DNA from: Kondoa subrosea
Lineage: Eukaryota
DNA length: 64,000 nt
Reading direction: 5' to 3'
Assembly (NCBI GenBank): GCA_039545335.1
Contig: BCIN01000002.1
Location: 3,006,678 to 3,070,677 of the forward strand
Position numbers and translations under genes: made by a program. The notes under the pieces are model-generated. The model saw nothing but the letters and a program-made list of their open reading frames with translations, was not told the origin of the DNA and ran no database searches. This document shows, piece by piece, positions 12,428-57,597 of the stretch (its first letter is position 1; the number at the start of each line of letters is the position of its first letter).

Positions 12428-14982
12428 ATGCATCGAGCAACGAGGACAGCAGCTAGACAGGCCCGAATTTCCTGCAGAAGAGCTTCTACCCAAGCTGCAC
12501 CAGTGCTACCAGCTTCCCAAAATATAGTTCGCCCATTCTTAGCCTTTGCATCTGGCATTGCTTTATCTGCAGCTGTCTATCAATACGCTTCACTCCCAAC
12601 AGTTCATGCTGATGAAGTGAAAGAGCCACGACAGCGGCCTTTTGCTAAAGACTTCAAAGATGCGATTGCAGAACTCAAGTCGGTCTTCCCTGGAGACAAG
12701 TTTAGCGTGGATGAAGATGACTTGAAATCCCATGGAGTCTCACCTAATTCTCACCACCCGCCGGCTAATCCTGCAGTCATCATCTATCCTGCTTCAACGG
12801 AAGATGTGCAGAAAGCTGTTGGCATAGCTTACAAGTATCGAATGCCTCTCACACCTTTCAGCGGAGGCACATCTCTCGAATCACATTGTTCTGCTCCTTA
12901 CGGTGGAATGTGTAAGTACTACCTTATCGCTATGTCATTGGATACTCTAATCATGTGATGAATTAGGTCTGGACTTATCGCGAATGGACAAGATCTTAGA
13001 GATCCACGAAGCTGATGGAGATCTCGTCTGTCAATCTGGAGCAAGATGGATGGATATCAACGAAGAATTAGCAGAACGGAACATCCCTCTCTTCTTTCCG
13101 CTAGATCCAGGTCCAGGGTGAGTTGCGGGTACTGCCTGCCAGTAAATTAGCTTGACGATGTAGTATAGAGCTACTATAGGAGGTATGGTGAGCTGTCTAT
13201 CGCATTTGAAAGCGGTCTGCCACTGAATGACTTCTCATTAGGTGGGAACAGGTTGTAGTGGTACGAACGCTATGCAAGTTGTCTATCACATTCAAAAGCG
13301 GTCTGGCACTGAATAACTTCTCATTAGGCGCTACGGTACTGCGAAAGGTTAGATTACGAATGTATACCTTTGATTACTGCTAATCTGGCTGGTCAGCGGA
13401 ATGGTTCTTGAACCTTACAGCAAGCCTCGCTATATATGTACTTTGTCCTTTGGCTTATATATCTCACATTCAGGTCGTTCTAGCTAATGGTGAAGTCATC
13501 AAAACTCGATCAAGAGCACGGAAGTCAAGTGCTGGCTTTGACTTGACTAAAGTGTTCATCGGCGCTGAAGGCACTCTGGGTATGTGTTGGCTTCTGCTCC
13601 TCACCACAATTAAAGCTGATTTTGACAAGGCGTTGTCACTGAGGCAACGATCAGACTCACTCCCCTGCTACCTACTCGAGTCGCTATTTGCAATTTCCCT
13701 TCTGTTCAAGATGCGGTAGCGTGCGTTTTAGAAGTCATCAACAAAGGTGTACCTTGTCAGTGTGTTGAACTGCTTGACTCGCTAAGCGTACATGCGGTCA
13801 ATGATGCCGGGGCAAGTGGCTTCCTCTGTCCAATGGATAAGAAGCTCATGAATGAACAGCTCTGTCCTATGAAGCTGGAAGAGAAAGAATCGATATGGTT
13901 CAAACTTCAAGGCGAACCAGCAGCGACAGAATTAGCTGCCAAACAGATTGAAGAGATATTGAAGAAACATCAAGGTGGGAAAATGATCTTTTCCAAATCT
14001 CAAGAAGAAGCGAATGAGATTTGGGCCGCAAGAAAATCATTGGCTTGGAGCGTGTGAGCACAATGTATTTACGGTTGCTTGAAAACAGCTGATTGTAATG
14101 AAATACAAAACAGTCAAGGATTGAAACCTGGATGGAAGATGTACTCCACAGATGTCTGTGTGCCGCTGTCACAGCTTCCAAGTCTGGTCCAAGATACTCA
14201 AGATGATTTCAAGCGGAATAACATCTTTGGTACTGTCTTGGGTCATGCGTGAGTTTCTGTACTGTGCACACTTGCATGACACTCATTCTGATTACAGAGG
14301 TGATGGAAACTTCCATGCGTCAATTCTGTCAGCTCATGTCAAGCTTTATTAATTCACATACTGAGATGCGATGAAGGTTTGAAAAAGACAGCGAATTTCC
14401 CGAAGTAGATGCAGCTGCTCATAGGGTAAGCCAGAGATCTTCGGACACCCTTGCACATCTGACACTGAAGTTGCTCGCTTAGATGGTTGATCGAGCAATC
14501 GATTTAGGTCAGCGATGTCTTTTCCCTTAAGCTGTATTTCTGATCGTCGATTGCAGGCGGAACGTGTACTGGGGAGGTAAGCTATATCCAGCTCTATCTC
14601 TCTTCTCGCTATAATGCTTGTTTCTGATATAGCATGGTGTCGGTAAGTCAAAAGATTCTATTGTGATTTCTGCAGCTGAATAATCGAACAGGCACTTTCA
14701 AGAGAGGATATCTCAAGAAAGAATTAGGTACTGGTACAGTGGCAGTAATGCAATCGATCAAGAATCTGCTGGTGAGCAATCTCAATGTTTCCCCAGCACG
14801 CTTTATATATAATGAAGATGTACCAGGACCCAACTGGTATCATGAGTGAGTCTCAACAATTGAGTTGAATTCAAAGCTTAACAACTCTATTTTAGATCCA
14901 GGCAAAGTAAGTCTGGGAAATACAGCGAGTTTCACGCTGACAATTGTTTCAGCTGTATCCGGATATCGAGAACGAGACATGA
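12428..14982 (+). CDS. DLD1: mitochondrial D-lactate dehydrogenase (cytochrome), FAD-linked oxidase family; many short exons
   Basis: R-rich presequence, PFSGGTSLESH, FPLDPGPGATIGGMVGTGCSGTNAMRYGT, RARKSSAGFDLTKVFIGAEGTLG, GHAGDGNFH, GTCTGEHGVG, DPTGIMNPGKL; stop after YPDIENET. Confidence 0.92.
13188..13327 (+). repeat. two paralogous 54-nt spliceosomal introns (13188-13241 GT-AG; 13274-13327 GC-AG) in DLD1
   Basis: Manual ungapped alignment gives 46/54 identity; splicing both restores GGMVGTGCSGTNAMRYGT. Confidence 0.9.
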
Positions 14983-17486: not shown

Positions 17487-17859
17487 GCAGTGCTAACAGA
17501 GCAGAACTAGAAAAGACAGGAAAATCTATTTCGATCAAATCGCTATAGATGGATAAGGTCTGAAGCGAGAGAAGGCGCAGCAGCAGACAACAGAACACAA
17601 CAAGGGAGCAGCGAGATGACAGTCAGGAGCAAGGAGAGATGAATAATATACTTGGAAAGTGGTGACTCGAGGAGAGAGACCCGATTCGGAGTCCGCTTTG
17701 AATGCGCATACGATATCAAACGTAGTGTATATTTCGCGTGCTACCACGACCTCGAAGGACAGCAGACGGAGTGCTTGGTAACAGAAAACAATAATTCTGC
17801 TTGGACAGCAACCGCGTCGTCCTTGCATATACCCTAGCCTGCCGGCTTGATCTAATACC

Positions 17860-20800
17860 ATGCCTAGATCGAGCTTATCTTCCTCGGGCGGTCCTCCTCC
17901 AGCAGCGAGCTCAAGTTTCGCTAGAAATCATGCAGATCTATCCAGTTCAGTATCGAAACGAGGCAACCGAGCTGCAGCTCAACCTGGGTTTTCATCTGCT
18001 TTAATGAAGAACCGGTATCGAAAAGTACAGGAAGCTCAAAGAATGGATGAGCCAAACAGTCAATATGATGTTGATCTATCAGACCAAGATTTCTCGGACG
18101 ATGATGGTTGGCAGGATGGTGGAGGGAATAGCTTAGATAGCTCTGATGAGGAATTGGATGGCCCAGGAGAGAAGACTCATCACAGGAGAGGCTCAAACTT
18201 TAGTCCACCTGCTTCGAGTCTGGTCGAATTGGCCGATTTGGATCTACGTATCTCTGATCGTACTGCTCGAGAAAAATGGAATCAGTCAATGGCGAAAGCT
18301 GCTACTCGTCCTGTAGCTCGAAGTTATGATGTATCTTATCGGGCTACTGCTCATGCAAACCAAGACAGTGCAGATGAAAGTGACGGTGAAGATCCAAGAC
18401 AACCCGCTAGCGAAGATTCTATGTCCAATAGCGAGGAAGAGGAAGAAAGCGAGAACGAGCAGCAACGTTGCGAATGGCAAAACATGTTGACCAATGTTTT
18501 GGAAGGCGATGTCTTGAAGTCAGAAAAGAATCGGTTGTCTGGTACAGCCGTACATCAAATGGATGATTCCACTGGTCAACGCAAATATCAATTCAATCAA
18601 ATTTGGATGGGTGTTCGTGCTTTCGTTAGAAACAGATCACTTGAAGCAGAACAGCGTTTCCTTCATGAAGCTCGAGCCCATATCGTTGCCATTTTCAATG
18701 AAGTAGCTTCTTTCAAGATTGTCTCTGCATCTGATGATCCCGATGCACCTGCACCTACTGCTGCTCAAGCAGCCGAGCAAGTTCAGATTCTCCTAGCGAA
18801 AACAAATTGGGCTATTTCTCTCTACCCTTCCATTGCTGCTCTTCGCGCATCTAATGAGCTGGCAAACAAGGAAGAAATTCTTGCAAGACTTGATGCTCTG
18901 CAAAGTTGGATCACTATTACAAGTCGCTTGCAGATGTATCTGGGGATATTGCAAAAATGGACTGGAAGTGAAAGCTTGGAAATCACTAAGCCTAATTTGG
19001 AAAAGCTGGGCGATGAAGGTGCTTCTCGCGATAACACTCCGCCAGCAGAAGATCAGCATCCTGAACAGCAACACCATCATCGCAAAATTCTCGATTCATC
19101 TACTTTCGTTGAACGCTTGCTGAAAGAAGAGTCTCTTACTTCCACTTTTGCCAAAGGCATTCTCAAGGACATCTATCCTCTCGTGACAGCGGCCAAAGAA
19201 ACCATCATCGCCAATAGAGCTCATTTCCTGGAAATTGGCTTACCACCCTTCAGTGAAGATCTAATTGCCATCATCAACTTCCCTATGAACCTAATGCGGG
19301 AAGCTATTTTCCTTCGACTAGATTCTGCTAGTCGAGTGAATAAAGAAGATCCTTCTATTGTCCTCATTGATCAACTTACCGATGATTTCCGAGCTGGTTT
19401 AACATTAGCAACCCAAATGAAAAAGAACTACTTGGAAACTATTCAACCTGATCCAGAAGGTGGTTGGGTTTTACCACCAGTTTCCCTCGACAGCTATAAT
19501 CATGTCTTGCAAAACGCCTTACGATTCTTCTTCAAGCTTCTACATTGGAAATTACGAAGTGGTAGTAAAGCGATCTATTTCAAAGAAACGGATATAGTTG
19601 AAAGAGAGTGGAACTTTTTGAGTAGAGCGGTTGAACAGATTGATGGTGGTGATTTGCTCATAGCTGAACATTTCTCGTAAGCTCTTTCACTTCAAGATCT
19701 AGTGCTCTGGTTGATCATCTGGGTTACAGCAATCTGACGATGAAGCTCATTCAAAGAGTCTCAACGTATGTGGATGAAACGCTAGAGATTCTTGGTCGCC
19801 GGCAGATGAGCGCTAGTAAAGTCACGAGGTGGTTCAACCAGCGTCTGGATGATGTCCGTCAAAGGCATCGAAAGCTTCTACGTTTCGGAAAGTAAGAGCT
19901 GACTCTATGGCGTAATAATATTCGCTGACCTTCGTGCCTTAGAGCTATTGTTCAACGCTTTGAAAACGCCACTGAATTCGATATGGAGACATCAAATCAC
20001 AAAATCGATCTCGGTCTCTTCATTGGTGCCTTGGCGGAAACCGATCATTTCCTCGTTTATACCGGTTTGACTGAACAGAAGGGCATTTATGTTATTGCAA
20101 GCGGAAACCTCCACGATCAACCAGAAGTCATCACTCGTATTCTTACTCGCTGCTATGTCGCTCACACTCAACCCGATTATATACCTTTCGAAGAAGAAGA
20201 TGAACCTGAACTTCCAGACGAATGTCGTTATGTCATCTTGCTTTCACCTCGTGACCCTTTCATCTGGACCGGAAGAGTGATGAGCTTGGATACTTTGCCC
20301 TCTGTTGTTCCCGAACTTGATCTCCGCGACAAGAGAATCAGGCTTGTGGCAGAAGGTCCGGATTCGCTTCTATTGGAAGCAAGAACGCATCTCTACCAAC
20401 TCTTCCCTCTTCTACCTCGCCTAATCATCAATGATAGAATCGCACACTTGGCAAGAGTCAACAGAGACGTCAAAAGAATCAAGAAGGTTACGTATCATCT
20501 TGGCGAGAATATCGTTACAGCCGCTGCACGAATTCAGCAGAATGTGCGTAGTTTAGAAGGAGGTGAAGGTCTACTCGCCACCTACTTTTCTTTCGCTGCG
20601 GATTTGGGCATGCGATCTTTACGTTCTTTCGAGCAATCTTTCAAGGCTCGCTTAAACATTCAGCTTCAGCAATTCGCTATTCAATGGGTTCATTTCATTT
20701 GCGAAGACTGTGTTCCTTCGGACGCAAGAACTTTCAAATGGGCTGTTGCTGCTTTAGAATTCGCTCGTGTCGTCACAAGAGGCAAGAACATCTTCAAGCT

Positions 20801-22681
20801 TTCAACTGAAGATTTCCTTCTTTTGCGATCTGGTGTTGCCAATTGCATGACTCTTCTTATTTCGCATTTCGATATTCTTGGCGCTCGATCAAGTGTTGAA
20901 ACAAGAAAGCAAAGAGAAAGACTGGACGCTGAAAGTCAAGAAACGCGGAAAGCAATTCAAGCTAAGTTGGCAGCTATGCAGGCTGGAAATCTAGAATACG
21001 AAGGCGACTTTGCTCTCACAGAACAACTTACCCCATCGAATGGTCTTGGTAGTTTAAGAGAAAGAAGGCAAAGATGGACCGATAAGCTCGCTGAACTCGA
21101 TGAACACCGTGCTGAAGTCGAATCTGGTATGCGTATGGTCGGCAAAGTACTCTCGCATGGTCGTCCAGAAGACCAATCTTTGCTCTCTTTGGCTTCATCA
21201 GCATCCAATATCAATATTCGTTGGCAACAGGGCAAGTTCATCGGCGCTGGTACATACGGAACAGTCTATCTTGCTGTCAACTTAGATTCAGGCGATGCTA
21301 TGGCTGTCAAAGAAATTCGATTTCAGGATTCAGCTTCAGCCCCTACACTCATCAAGCAGATTCAAGATGAGATGTCGGTCATGAGCATGATTCATCATCC
21401 GAACATCGTAGACTACTACGGTATTGAAGTACATCGAGATAAAGTTTACATCTTCGAGGAGTATTGTCAAGGAGGAAGTTTGGCTTCTTTGCTTGAACAT
21501 GGTCGAATCGAAGATGAAACCGTTCTTCAACTATATACTTATCAACTGGTAAGCTTGATTTGCTGCTTGCTCGGTTTGCGGCTGATGCTTCAGTCCAGCT
21601 CGATGGTCTTATCTATCTACATCAGCAAGGAGTTGTCCACCGTGATATAAAGCCTGACAGCAAGTACACTTCCATTTAGACACTTCAATGCAATTGACAT
21701 CTAGCATAGATATCCTCATTGACGGCAACGGTATGATGAAGCTAGCAGATTTCGGTTCGGCGAAAGTTCTGGTCAAGAAAGCTATGACTTTAGCAGGTCG
21801 AACACGGGGAGCTTTCGCACCAAATCCTATTCGAGATGATCTACCCGCAGCGGCAAATGCTGGTCCACAAAATACTCTGAGCGGAACTCCAATGTACATG
21901 AGTCCTGAAGTCATCAAGGGTGAGAAATCTGGTGACAAAGGTGCTATGGACATCTGGAGGTGTGCAACATCACGTTGTGTTTTGACGTTTCAACTCAATA
22001 GTACACAGTTTGGGATGTGTCATGCTTGAGTGTGCTACTGGCAAGCGGCCTTGGGCAGGTCTAGACAACGAATGGGCTATCATGTTCGTCTCTGTACTGT
22101 CTCAGTCCATTGTATACTGATTGATGGTGTGCGACAGGTTCCACATCGGTGTGGCCAAAGAACATCCCCCTCTGCCTGATCCATCTCAGCTTTCCGAATT
22201 GGGTATCGACTTCATCAAGTGTTGTTTGACGATTGATGTCAATAAGCGGCCGACGGCTGAAGAATTGCTCAATCATCCTTGGATTCAAGGTTTCACGTAT
22301 GTTATTACTGTTCACTAACAACATGGTTTAGGCTCATCCAATGCTATCTACAGCGAGGAATTGTACCAAGAACAAGATGAGATCGATGGATCTGACGAAA
22401 GCGCCAATCTTGGTTACATTTCCAATGCACAAATGGATGGACAAACTATTGTGCGTTCTTTCGCATTTTCAGACAAATAGGTATTGACCCGATCATAAAG
22501 ATCGATGATGTGTCTAGCTATTCTATAGCGAACAGACCAGTGAATCCTATTGGAGTTCCTCTGTAAGTGAAAGTCTGGACAGATATGTTTGAAACAGTAT
22601 TGATGAGATTTGTTGTATAGAACTGCGCTCACTGAGGAAGAAGAAGAAGAAGAACTGGCGCTCGAAAATCCTACAGACTAG
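17860..22681 (+). CDS. SSK2: stress-activated MAP kinase kinase kinase of the HOG pathway (Ssk2/Win1/Wis4 type)
   Basis: EWQNMLTNVLEGDVLKSEK N-terminal conserved block, CEDCVPSDARTFKWAV, kinase domain RWQQGKFIGAGTYG, MAVKEIRFQD, HRDIKPDN, DFG, GTPMYMSPE; manually spliced terminal exons end LENPTD*. Confidence 0.93.
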
Positions 22682-53364: not shown

Positions 53365-55256
53365 TTAACGTCCAGTCCGTATTACTCTCCAAAGTACACC
53401 AATTCTTTCCCATTTACTTACTTTCGCTCTTCCTTCCAATTCTCCTCTACTCAATTTCTCCTTTACCTTCACACCAACTTCCAAATAAACAGCACAAGCA
53501 GCTCTTAATCCCACCCTAGCTTCTTCAGGCATAGAATCAATAGCACACATACATCTCCTTCCAATCTCTTCAGCAGAATCACATAACTTCCTTCGATCTT
53601 CACTGAGTTCTTCCAAACTTTCTTTCCCAGATCGACCAGGTAAATAACATCTTCCCATTTCAGAATCAGCAGGTACATCTCTTGCAATATTAACATATTG
53701 TAACGCTTGACCCATTTCTCTAGCTGCTTCTAAAGTATTCGGATCAAGTGTTTGGTTGTAAGCTGAACAAGCCAAAATAACAGAAAGTTCAGCAACGCTT
53801 GAAGCTACTCTTTGTGCGTAAAGTTCTAAATCTGCTTGAGTATGGATTTGTAGTGTTGGGAATTGAAGATCTGTTGCGAATCCGGCTAAGAGATCAGCAA
53901 AAGGTTGATAGGGTAGATTTAAAGAGGGTAGGAGTGATAAGGCCGGTTGATGTGATTCTTGACACCGGGCTAGAGCGAGAGATAGTTCTTTAGGGTTCGT
54001 GTGAGGAGAGGTTGCTAGTTGGAAGTAGGTTTGAAGGTCAGAGAGATTCTGTGTTGCTTCTGAGGGTGAAGAGGCTTCGTCTATTGCATCATCTGCAACT
54101 CGACATATTGCGTAGCTACGATTCAGATAAGCTCTACTTCGAGGCATATTGAGATGCGCATACAGTGATAATAGCTCTACTCTTAGACGACCTTCGAAGA
54201 GCATCGAGGCAGTCGAAAAGCTTTTGCTCTTCTCCTGCAATATCCCGAGTGAGGTTTGCAAAGCTGATAATTTCTGAGAAGGATAGGCTGAAGAAGGTAG
54301 AGTGATAGCTTGAAGTGTTGTAAGAAGAGGTGGAACGCTTGCTATACGTTCATTGAAGAGTTCAGGGAATGTATCGCATACAGCAAAAGCGAGATCTCTG
54401 TTCTTCTGTGTGAGCACTTGTTGTTTCAGGCAGACGGTCAACTCACGATGCTACATGTCCGAAGACAATCATGAGATTGGTGACAAGGAAGAAGATGGCC
54501 TCCCTGCCGCAGGAAAAGTCAGGATGGATAATGGGCATACCATAGGAGACTGACTCTATCTCTAGATGAGGCCAAAGATGTATTCCAAGCTTTGTTCCAC
54601 TTTCAATCACCCATGTTCCCCTTCTCAACGCAAATGTATCTACCAGCCAAAGATACAAAGTGGGCACAGCGACAGGCAAGATTGTAGCTGTCCAAGGTAA
54701 TGCGATGATATGCGAGTAGGCCAAAGTCCAAAGTAGAAGTAAGAAAGGCAAGCACCAGAGTAGGATAAGCGAAATGTAGGTTCCTTTGCCTTCATCCATA
54801 AACAGCTTGCATGAGAAGATCCATAGTGCTACGATCACAGCTCCGACACCAAGTTGGATCCGTCTCCGAGATTTACGTTGTAGATAGACCGAATGAACAA
54901 GGGGCCGAGAAGTGAGTGCATATAGACTTGAGGTGATGTAGGTTTGCACGAAAAAGAAGAAGTATTCTTCTATCGGTATAGAAAAGAGAGTGGGACCAAT
55001 GACGGCCGATGAAGGGTAAGTCCAGATCTTGCTACGAACGAGATAGCTGTCCCAAGGTGTCGTTGCGATAACCGCAATCTTTCAAAAGACAAACATCAGT
55101 CCCTCGGTACTTCGGTCTAAGTTGCTATAGGCTTACAAGGATCAGCAAGTTGGTCCTGTATCTTTCCCGCCTTGTCCGAAACGGTTTCCCTAGCAGGTAG
55201 AGCGCCAAAGCTGGCGGAATTGTGTATATGAGATGAACGACAGCATAATCGAACAT
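53365..55256 (-). CDS. crtYB: bifunctional lycopene cyclase / phytoene synthase (CrtYB / CarRA / Al-2)
   Basis: Cyclase domain MFDYAVVHLIYTIPP, IAVIATTPWDSYL, IPIEEYFFF, LWLVDTFALRRGTW, EEAIFFLVTN; synthase domain KSKSFSTAS, CRVADDAIDE, GQALQYVNIARDV..D...GRCYLP. Confidence 0.96.
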
Positions 55257-55490: not shown

Positions 55491-57597
55491 ATGTTCGAAG
55501 CTGGTGCTTTGGAGTCAGCCGTTCCTCTGTCCAAAGCCAAACATCCTTACAGAACTGGAAACTATGCCCCGGTCAAGCGAGAATGTCGACAAGAGGCCGA
55601 CTGTTTCTTTGGATCCCTACCTACTGAACTAGCTGATTCAATGTACTGTCGTAATGGAAGCAATCCTTCACAAAATGATGACGAAGGCGATTTTCACTGG
55701 TCAGTCTCAAGCAATCTGCACACTAGAAATAAGCTGAATGGAAATAATTTCAGGTTCGATGGCGATGGAATGATTTCTGGAGTAGTCTTCTCAACAAACG
55801 ACAAGGGTCTTATCAAACCAGTCTTCGTTAACCGATTCATGCTCACCGACATCTATCTCGCATCAGTCGCATCAAAAGGTAGAAAAGCTATCACTCCTTC
55901 CATTGCTACACTTTTGTCTCCCATCACATCTTTACACCGAATCATGTTCTCCATTTTGCGTACAGTCACCTTGTGCTTACTTTCCTTCTTCACCCAATTC
56001 CCAATCAAAAGAATATCAGTAGCCAATACCGCTGTTCTCTTTCATGATGGTCGAGCATTAGCGACTTGTGAATCTGGTCCACCTCTTTGGATCGAATTGC
56101 CTACTTTAGAGACTGTCGGTTGGTGGAGCTTGGATGAACAGGAAGATGAGGTATCCTTGAGAGGTGGAGGAGGGATCACGGGTATGATCAATGAGTTCAC
56201 AACAGCTCATGTGAGTGACTCTTTCCCCATCTTTTTCACTGAAAAGGCTTCAACTAAACTGTCGCACAGCCCAAAAGTGATCGACTGACCGGAGAATTGA
56301 TTCTCTATCACGCTTCTTTTGCACCACCGTACCTCAAATACTCAGTCATTCCTGCTAGACAACATAAAGCAGAGAAGTCTGGTCAAAAGATTTTAGCACA
56401 TCCGGTGCCAATTCGTGAGTCTGTCTTCATTGTTTCAATTAATCGAATCTGAGTATATCCTACTAGCTTCACCTCGAATGATGCACGATTTCGGCGTCAG
56501 TCGAGATCACACAGTCATAGTCGACTGTCCACTTTCTCTCGATCCACTCAATCTGGCTCGTGGACGACCAGTAGTCAACTATTCCCCCAACACACCGACC
56601 CGATTTGGCATCTTCCCACGTCATTCACCTTCTTCAGTCAAATGGTATGAAGGTGAAAGTTGCTGTATTTTCCACACTGCCAATACTTGGACCAACACTT
56701 CAACCCAAGAAATCAATCTTCTTTGTTGCAGAATGAACTCTTCTTCCCTCGTCTACGCAGCTGGTAATTTGCCTTTACCTCGAAATCAAATCTTTATCGA
56801 ATCAGCAGAAGAAACTTGTCAATTACATTATTACTCTTTCCCACTTCAATCGCAAACCATTGGTCATTCTTTTCCATTATCAGTTATACCTTTTGAATTC
56901 CCTGAAGTTTCACCTTTGAAAACAATGGAAGAAGCGAAATACGTTTTTGGTTGTTCTATGAAATCTGGATCTTTTACTGTTGCTTTAGGTCAAGCTTCGA
57001 AAATTGACGTTTTGGTTAAAGTCAACGTCCTTTCACTCATTAACAAAGGTCGTTCTACTACTACCACAACAACGAAAAAGAAAGCAGTGGATACAAGACC
57101 GGTTGTACAAATCTTAGCTGAACAAACATCTCGTTGTTCATCAAAAGAAGAAGAAGATGTGGATATCAGAATATTCTCATTCCCTGAAAATCATTATGCT
57201 CAAGAACCTTCTTTCGTACCTCGTTCTAACAATCCAAGAGGGGAAGATGATGGTTTTTTATTGGTTTATGTTTTTGATGAATCCCAATTAGATGAGCAAG
57301 GGAATGCAAAGTCGGATAGCAAGAGTGAATTATGGGTCATCGATGCTTGGGATATGGAGACTGTGATTGCGAAAATTAAACTACCACAACGAGGTGAGCT
57401 CTTTCCTTTGAGTGAGGAAGACGGACAACTTACCAGGAGTCATAGTGCCGTATGGACTTCATGGAGAATGGTTCACTAAAGATCAGATTGCTTCACAAAG
57501 ACCTATTACAACTCGAAGAGAAAGACCAAGCAGAAAGCTGGAGAAGGAGACTTTTGGAGAGAAGATCGTTGGACAATTGCAACTTTGGTTAGATTAA
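55491..57597 (+). CDS. carX: carotenoid cleavage oxygenase (CarX/Cco1/CCD family, RPE65 superfamily)
   Basis: HPYRTGNYAPV, YCRNGSNP, HWFDGDGM, SVANT, ATCESGPP, four Fe-ligating His (TAHPK, MMHDF, IFHTAN, YGLHGEW), FEFP, EDDGFLLVYVFDE. Divergent from crtYB. Confidence 0.94.

Follow-up and report, generated by a model that had tools for sequence, protein, structure and literature searches.

Copies of introns within one genome were sorted into classes in a survey of 24 fungi (Collemare et al. 2013, PMC3609843). In this survey, 1610 multi-copy introns comprised 82 same-gene duplications (SGDs, in 11 species), 302 low-copy introns and 1226 introner-like elements (ILEs). SGD introns were of normal length and normal free energy, and half of the SGDs were without exon duplication; for these it was considered that an intron may have transposed within one transcript. 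ILEs were about twice as long as normal introns and had stable folds, and their copies ran to hundreds (PMC3609843). Here we describe two neighbouring 54-nt introns, A and B, which closely resemble one another and lie in a D-lactate-dehydrogenase-like (DLD-like) gene of the basidiomycete Kondoa subrosea. The gene is part of a 64,000-nt (64-kb) stretch of contig BCIN01000002.1 (positions 3,006,678 to 3,070,677 of the forward strand), which was analysed as a whole and is called the window below; all coordinates refer to it.

Table 1 of the survey gives no SGDs for Cryptococcus neoformans, the only basidiomycete there as judged from the species names (PMC3609843). Variable intron positions in Cryptococcus or Fusarium were described as having no intron-to-intron similarity (Croll and McDonald 2012, PMC3514964). 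In Mycosphaerella, suspected reverse-splicing events mostly hit positions that were already intronic, and only few cases are on record in which intron transposition has left unambiguous traces, with 14 events counted in a 2012 review (PMC3443670).

Intron A (13188-13241) and intron B (13274-13327), both on the forward strand, can be aligned without a gap, and 46 of the 54 positions are identical; seven of the eight differences are transitions and one is a transversion. These coordinates and values, recomputed, are the same as those in the initial annotation that drew attention to the pair. Chance likeness is excluded, since A and B gave the only non-self match at E<=1e-3 when the window was compared with itself by BLASTN (E=1.4e-11). 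The binomial probability of at least 46 matches in 54 positions at p=0.27 is 6e-19, and a degenerate pattern of the 33-nt core, with 3 mismatches allowed, had 2 matches compared with 0 in 100 shuffles.

The likeness stops at the splice sites, as had been claimed. In register, the flanks are identical at 5 of 32 positions upstream and at 7 of 32 downstream, which is the chance level. A repeat search over 12500-14000 found the twins as the sole repeat, with a spacing of 86 nt, and this period did not extend past the introns. The 32-nt exon between them had been described as not duplicated, and no repeat of it was found. At a 1-nt offset, TAT(G) closes each of the two upstream exons, and G opens each of the downstream ones, which is near chance. 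One twin is a precise whole-unit copy of the other, and the duplication is non-segmental, with no exon sequence copied. As the flanks bear no relation to each other, a tandem duplication of an entire 86-nt segment was rejected. Which intron is the parent copy is a matter of polarity, which needs an outgroup to be set.

The 18 introns of the gene form 153 pairs, among which A and B stand apart, with 85% identity and an alignment score of 38. The other 152 pairs have a mean identity of 57.8% (standard deviation 4.7%), a maximum of 68.4% and scores of at most 8. The initial annotation had seen no other intron pair alike, and this held both in the gene and in the window, where the twins are the sole repeat. 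No third, more diverged copy was found among the gene's other 16 introns (the best match, of A with 14426-14482, reached 68% with a score of 5, which is background), and neither pattern nor BLASTN searches found a further copy of A or B in the 64-kb window. A 30-nt degenerate intron core had 0 matches in prokaryotic genome contigs and 0 in viral contigs, as expected there. BLASTN found no likeness of either twin to exon sequence in the window, and on this ground a gain through tandem duplication of exon sequence containing AGGT is not supported.

Apart from their likeness, the twins are ordinary introns. Their length of 54 nt compares with 46-60 nt in the gene's other 16 introns. The predicted folding energy is -10.8 kcal/mol for A (z-score -0.49) and -4.4 kcal/mol for B (z-score +0.68), and no special fold in either was better than those of shuffles or of four neighbouring introns. 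The single 5-bp stem of A is broken, uncompensated, in B. No Rfam match at E<=1 was found in 12900-13700, and for this reason a small RNA carried by the intron was no longer considered. Taken together, the lack of an Rfam family, the folds no better than shuffles and the broken stem make a functional RNA under selection unlikely.

Three of the eight differences fall in the donor hexamer (GTGAGC in A, GCAAGT in B). One more affects the likely branch motif, which is TGAC, 11 nt from the 3′ end, in A and TAAC at the same place in B. In this way, half of the differences (4/8) sit in splice signals, and every variant stays usable. By its sequence, the donor of intron B would be GC, followed by the consensus AAGT at positions +3 to +6; both introns end in TTAG.

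Both pieces interrupt one of the enzyme's conserved motifs. In tblastn alignments with two distant homologues (P0003 and P0004), the stretch ATIGGM / VGTGCSGTNA(M) / RYGTAKG is broken at A and again at B. According to tblastn and the L001 alignment described below, exon 3 (13169-13187, 19 nt) encodes (G)ATIGGM, exon 4 (13242-13273, 32 nt) encodes VGTGCSGTNA(M) and exon 5 (13328-13347, 20 nt) encodes (M)RYGTAK, all on the forward strand. Retention of A would bring an in-frame stop at codon 13 of the intron, and retention of B would bring one at codon 15.

A metagenome scan with P0002 yielded 83 pattern matches, which came down to two loci. One of them, L002, has 36% identity and an unbroken match. 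The other, L001, is a 1709-nt cDNA-like metatranscriptome contig of a relative, spliced throughout save for one retained intron. The mature sequence of L001 runs straight over both predicted junctions; as a spliced transcript it confirms the junctions and is silent on genomic introns of the relative at the A or B sites. Spliced alignment with L001 also bore out the phases (0 for A, 2 for B) and the donors (GT-AG for A, GC-AG for B) that had been read from the letters, and the homologues agree with these intron borders. The GC donor at 13274 is the only choice that restores the conserved reading ...NAMRYGTAKA seen in the L001 cDNA. The interrupted conserved motif, the in-frame stops and the exon joins of L001 at the same places allow us to infer that A and B are genuine spliceosomal introns, spliced in K. 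subrosea.

How does this pair compare with the known systems? It is closest to the SGDs (van der Burgt et al. 2012; Collemare et al. 2013, PMC3609843), with which it shares the position of both copies in one gene, the absence of exon duplication and a normal length and stability. The twins show homology by BLASTN, unduplicated flanks and ordinary length and fold, and the search for copies covers 64 kb. They differ from SGDs in their basidiomycete host, in being 85% and not nearly 100% identical, in lying only 32 nt apart and in that one of them is a GC-AG intron (PMC3609843).

With ILEs and the introners of Micromonas, the twins share homologous introns at non-homologous positions and seamless integration. 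In contrast to ILEs, which are long and stable and have hundreds of copies in unrelated genes (PMC3609843), the twins have an ordinary length and fold, and only two copies are seen; neither the roughly twofold length nor the stable fold of ILEs is found in them. The label "introner-like", proposed initially, is not supported, in view of the ordinary length, the ordinary fold and the lack of a further copy in 64 kb.

Two other systems are close in interpretation. In Oikopleura dioica (Denoeud et al. 2010, via PMC3609843, PMC4122922 and preprint 10.1101/051292), short introns copied nearby were read as reverse-splicing-type propagation; the host is, however, an animal, and many of its introns are non-canonical. 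In Mycosphaerella/Zymoseptoria (Torriani et al. 2011, via PMC3443670 and PMC3514964), similar introns were ascribed to reverse splicing, and the hits on occupied positions match the replacement variant of the mechanism outlined below. There, however, the copies lie in unrelated genes, show presence/absence polymorphism and were later recognised as ILEs. The twins are another instance of a known event type, and no new mechanism is revealed by them.

To place the copying in time, the twins can be set against the distance between the window and L001. The two proteins are identical at 466 of 533 amino acids and their aligned codons at 1220 of 1599 nucleotides. At fourfold-degenerate sites 145 of 220 (66%) differ, giving a Jukes-Cantor distance of 1.58, near saturation. 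The twins differ at 8 of 54 positions (15%, Jukes-Cantor distance 0.165), or at 5 of 48 outside the donor hexamer.

The retained intron of L001 (722-769, 48 nt, GT-AG) stands at the position of the window intron 13420-13473, which has a GC donor. These two match at 27 of 54 positions, which is the background for unrelated introns, and are unalignable. Because the twin divergence is far below the fourfold divergence and the orthologous intron can no longer be aligned, the copying, or a last homogenisation, would have come after the split from the relative. By a crude estimate, and if introns are roughly neutral, it would be specific to this lineage and fall within about one tenth of the distance to the organism of L001. 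The initial annotation had called the copying recent. With a divergence of 15%, the copying is young when measured against the split from the nearest relative sampled, and the word stands in this sense only. The annotation's other part, that one intron was copied as a precise unit into a nearby site or overwrote an existing intron, agrees with the exact intron homology, the absence of copied exon sequence and the relatively young age.

On balance we favour, with fair but by no means full confidence, a lineage-specific, non-segmental duplication of an intron within its own gene, most likely by RNA-mediated transposition in cis. What was copied is the intron, first base to last, without gaps and without exon sequence, as would be expected of a copy made through an intermediate of excised intron RNA. 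Reverse splicing appears to us the most likely mechanism, and intron transposition "into its own mRNA" has been set out in a review (PMC3443670). After excision, the intron lariat would stay in the spliceosome together with its own just-ligated transcript and would enter it again by reverse splicing, at a target 32 nt away. This target would be either an intron-free site, which amounts to gain, or the junction of an existing intron, which amounts to replacement. The transcript with the extra intron would then be reverse-transcribed, and the cDNA would recombine with the gene over a short tract. Finally, the copies would drift apart by 8 substitutions, 3 of them in the donor hexamer, and B would become a GC-donor intron.

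The initial annotation had also offered ectopic conversion as a route. At the DNA level, conversion between two unrelated 54-nt introns has no starting homology and is unlikely unless mediated by RNA. Transposon-type gain is not supported either: no inverted repeats were found in 12500-14000, and there is no target-site duplication beyond 2-3 nt (the repetition of the intron start at the start of the next exon is at chance level). DNA-transposon introners are said, after Huff et al. 2016, to carry terminal inverted repeats, together with a target-site duplication from which a splice site is taken.

A bolder extension of the favoured reading makes the gene a hot spot of introns multiplying in cis. 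The twins would then be the youngest recognisable product of repeated reverse splicing, and older products would have drifted beyond recognition. We consider this doubtful.

Several points weigh against transposition through RNA as we have described it. Every step of the mechanism is a proposal, and reverse splicing into an ectopic site was stated never to have been shown in vivo (PMC3443670). The exact borders are weaker evidence than they seem, since selection in a conserved motif would purge any insert that is not exactly spliced, and a DNA-level copy with such borders would survive too. The TAT(G) shared by the 5′ flanks at a 1-nt offset is a possible microhomology, with the limit that the alignment it implies needs extra indels. 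The splicing of A and B in K. subrosea would rest on the cDNA of a relative, and the copy count covers 64 kb of a genome of roughly 18.8 Mb. The dating is crude: it presupposes that introns evolve neutrally and that neither twin was later converted by the other, the fourfold sites are saturated and rates may be unequal.

Other explanations of the pair were weighed against the same evidence. An assembly artefact, in the form of a collapsed or stuttered repeat, is all but refuted, and we give it practically no chance. In each of two Logan assemblies of public DNA runs (18.8 and 18.9 million letters), 13100-13420 lies intact in a single contig, and these contigs (28,016 and 3,198 nt) show 0 differences and neither joints nor loose ends. 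A single sample, perhaps the source of the window, is behind both runs, so that they amount to a second assembly and not to independent data; within this limit no misassembly was seen. No second contig was placed on 13100-13420 at 80% likeness, by an aligner that also missed the 85% cross-match of A and B and is thus weak on diverged copies. A k-mer assembly could not have created or collapsed the copies, since every exact word that A and B have in common is much shorter than 31 nt. Moreover, 8 sites tell the copies apart, and the conserved protein motif requires the exon that separates them. It is unlikely, too, that A and B belong to a dispersed multi-copy family, of low copy number or made of degenerating introner-like elements, and came to be adjacent by chance or by local hopping. 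Families of this kind are recognised by near-identical introns at unrelated positions, and with decay ILEs come to look like ordinary introns (PMC3609843). However, the twins have the ordinary length of 54 nt, no stable fold and no terminal inverted repeats, and two members only 32 nt apart in one gene would be improbable unless copying is local. The window holds no other copy, which excludes only very large families. Even less probable, in our view, is an old duplication in which the twins stayed alike because they converted one another repeatedly or because selection acted on a functional intron element. The 86-nt spacing would permit conversion once homology exists, and the four differences in splice signals all leave usable variants. 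Against this, 54 nt is short for conversion tracts, 5 of the 48 non-donor positions already differ, and the Rfam and folding results, with the stem of A broken in B, speak against a functional element. The original duplication event would in any case still be needed.

The main mechanistic rival to the RNA route is a copy made at the DNA level, in which a break or stalled fork was repaired by template switching, with the nearby intron as filler, and only an exactly spliced insert survived. The distance from source to target is 86 nt, a typical one for templated repair insertions. Both introns are preceded by TAT(G), at the 1-nt offset, and followed by G, and the repair of double-strand breaks is accepted as one way in which introns are gained (PMC3443670). 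Yet a TATG microhomology predicts borders shifted by 1 base and 1-2 extra indels, and the intron-exact alignment needs none. A match of 3-4 nt with a free offset is itself near chance, and no longer direct repeats lie beside either intron. We accordingly regard templated repair as improbable, and RNA-mediated transposition in cis is the reading that we retain.

The coding sequence of the gene, including the stop codon, extends over 12428-14982 on the forward strand, as delimited by spliced alignment with L001, Pfam and tblastn. Splice-aware dynamic programming of L001 against the window gave an open frame for a product of 539 amino acids, interrupted by 18 introns of 46-60 nt each. The Pfam domain FAD_binding_4 corresponds to exon 1 and FAD-oxidase_C to the long exon, which marks the product as an FAD-linked oxidase. 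A protein of Amanita thiersii (P0003, named D-lactate dehydrogenase in UniRef) aligns along the gene in tblastn.

With 18 introns in 1617 nt of coding sequence, the gene has about one intron per 90 nt. Ten of its exons are micro-exons, of 10, 11, 19, 19, 20, 20, 23, 25, 30 and 32 nt. Around the twins, five introns crowd into the 356 nt of 13118-13473, and the exons between them measure 19, 32, 20 and 23 nt. The neighbouring MCM6 gene has only about 4 breaks between 5 tblastn segments over roughly 2.7 kb. Intron density is in this way very uneven between neighbours, being about 5 times higher in the DLD-like gene than in MCM6.

GC donors occur in 3 of the 18 introns (at 13274, 13420 and 13812, forward strand), and all of them read GCAAG. 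In eukaryotes GC donors usually make up about 1%, and the share in this gene is far above that. GC-AG introns usually need a strong consensus in the rest of the donor, and all three GC donors of the gene fit. A census of donors by regular expression across the window counted 5 GC, 29 GT, 6 GA and 2 GG donors; GC did not exceed the GA/GG background there, and the pattern was too strict and skipped the twins. The high share of GC donors may be a peculiarity of the DLD-like gene.

The case at 13812 is ambiguous. The 48-nt segment 13812-13859 (forward strand), from GCAAGT to ACAG, is in frame and free of stops, and it is missing from the L001 cDNA, which joins ...NDAG|LCPM... at this point. The first 12 nt of the exon that follows recur within the segment at 11 of 12 positions (LCPMDKK... 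and LCPMKLEE...). Judging by its sequence, the segment could be either a third GC-AG intron that arose from a small tandem duplication or a coding insertion of 16 amino acids.

Several other genes were recognised in the window. The conserved MCM6 exon adjoining the DLD-like gene has its best named matches, at 88-91% identity, in Pucciniomycotina and other basidiomycetes. At 17851-21650 (forward strand), two very long open exons (609 and 573 amino acids) match MEKK4_N and the protein kinase domain. They are predicted to form a MAP-kinase-kinase-kinase-like gene with few introns, unlike the DLD-like gene. Farther on, a long open exon at 53365-54450 on the reverse strand matches Pfam SQS_PSY (squalene/phytoene synthase, E=1e-38), and another at 56397-57479 on the forward strand matches RPE65 (carotenoid oxygenase family, E=3e-56). 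These two genes, divergent and about 2 kb apart, look like a fungal carotenoid gene pair. Along with the Logan contig total of about 18.8 Mb, the MCM6 matches and the carotenoid genes suggest, as a loose placement, a basidiomycete of small genome that may be a pigmented yeast.

The origin of new spliceosomal introns is still argued. In the twins, the whole intron and nothing else was copied, at a spacing of 86 nt and inside a motif that is among the enzyme's most conserved. They add a basidiomycete example to a class known mainly from ascomycetes and a tunicate, and their locus is a concrete place at which to decide between gain and replacement. If the reading of the gene as a hot spot were true, this small-genome and probably culturable basidiomycete yeast would offer a locus at which to catch spliceosomal intron transposition in the act.

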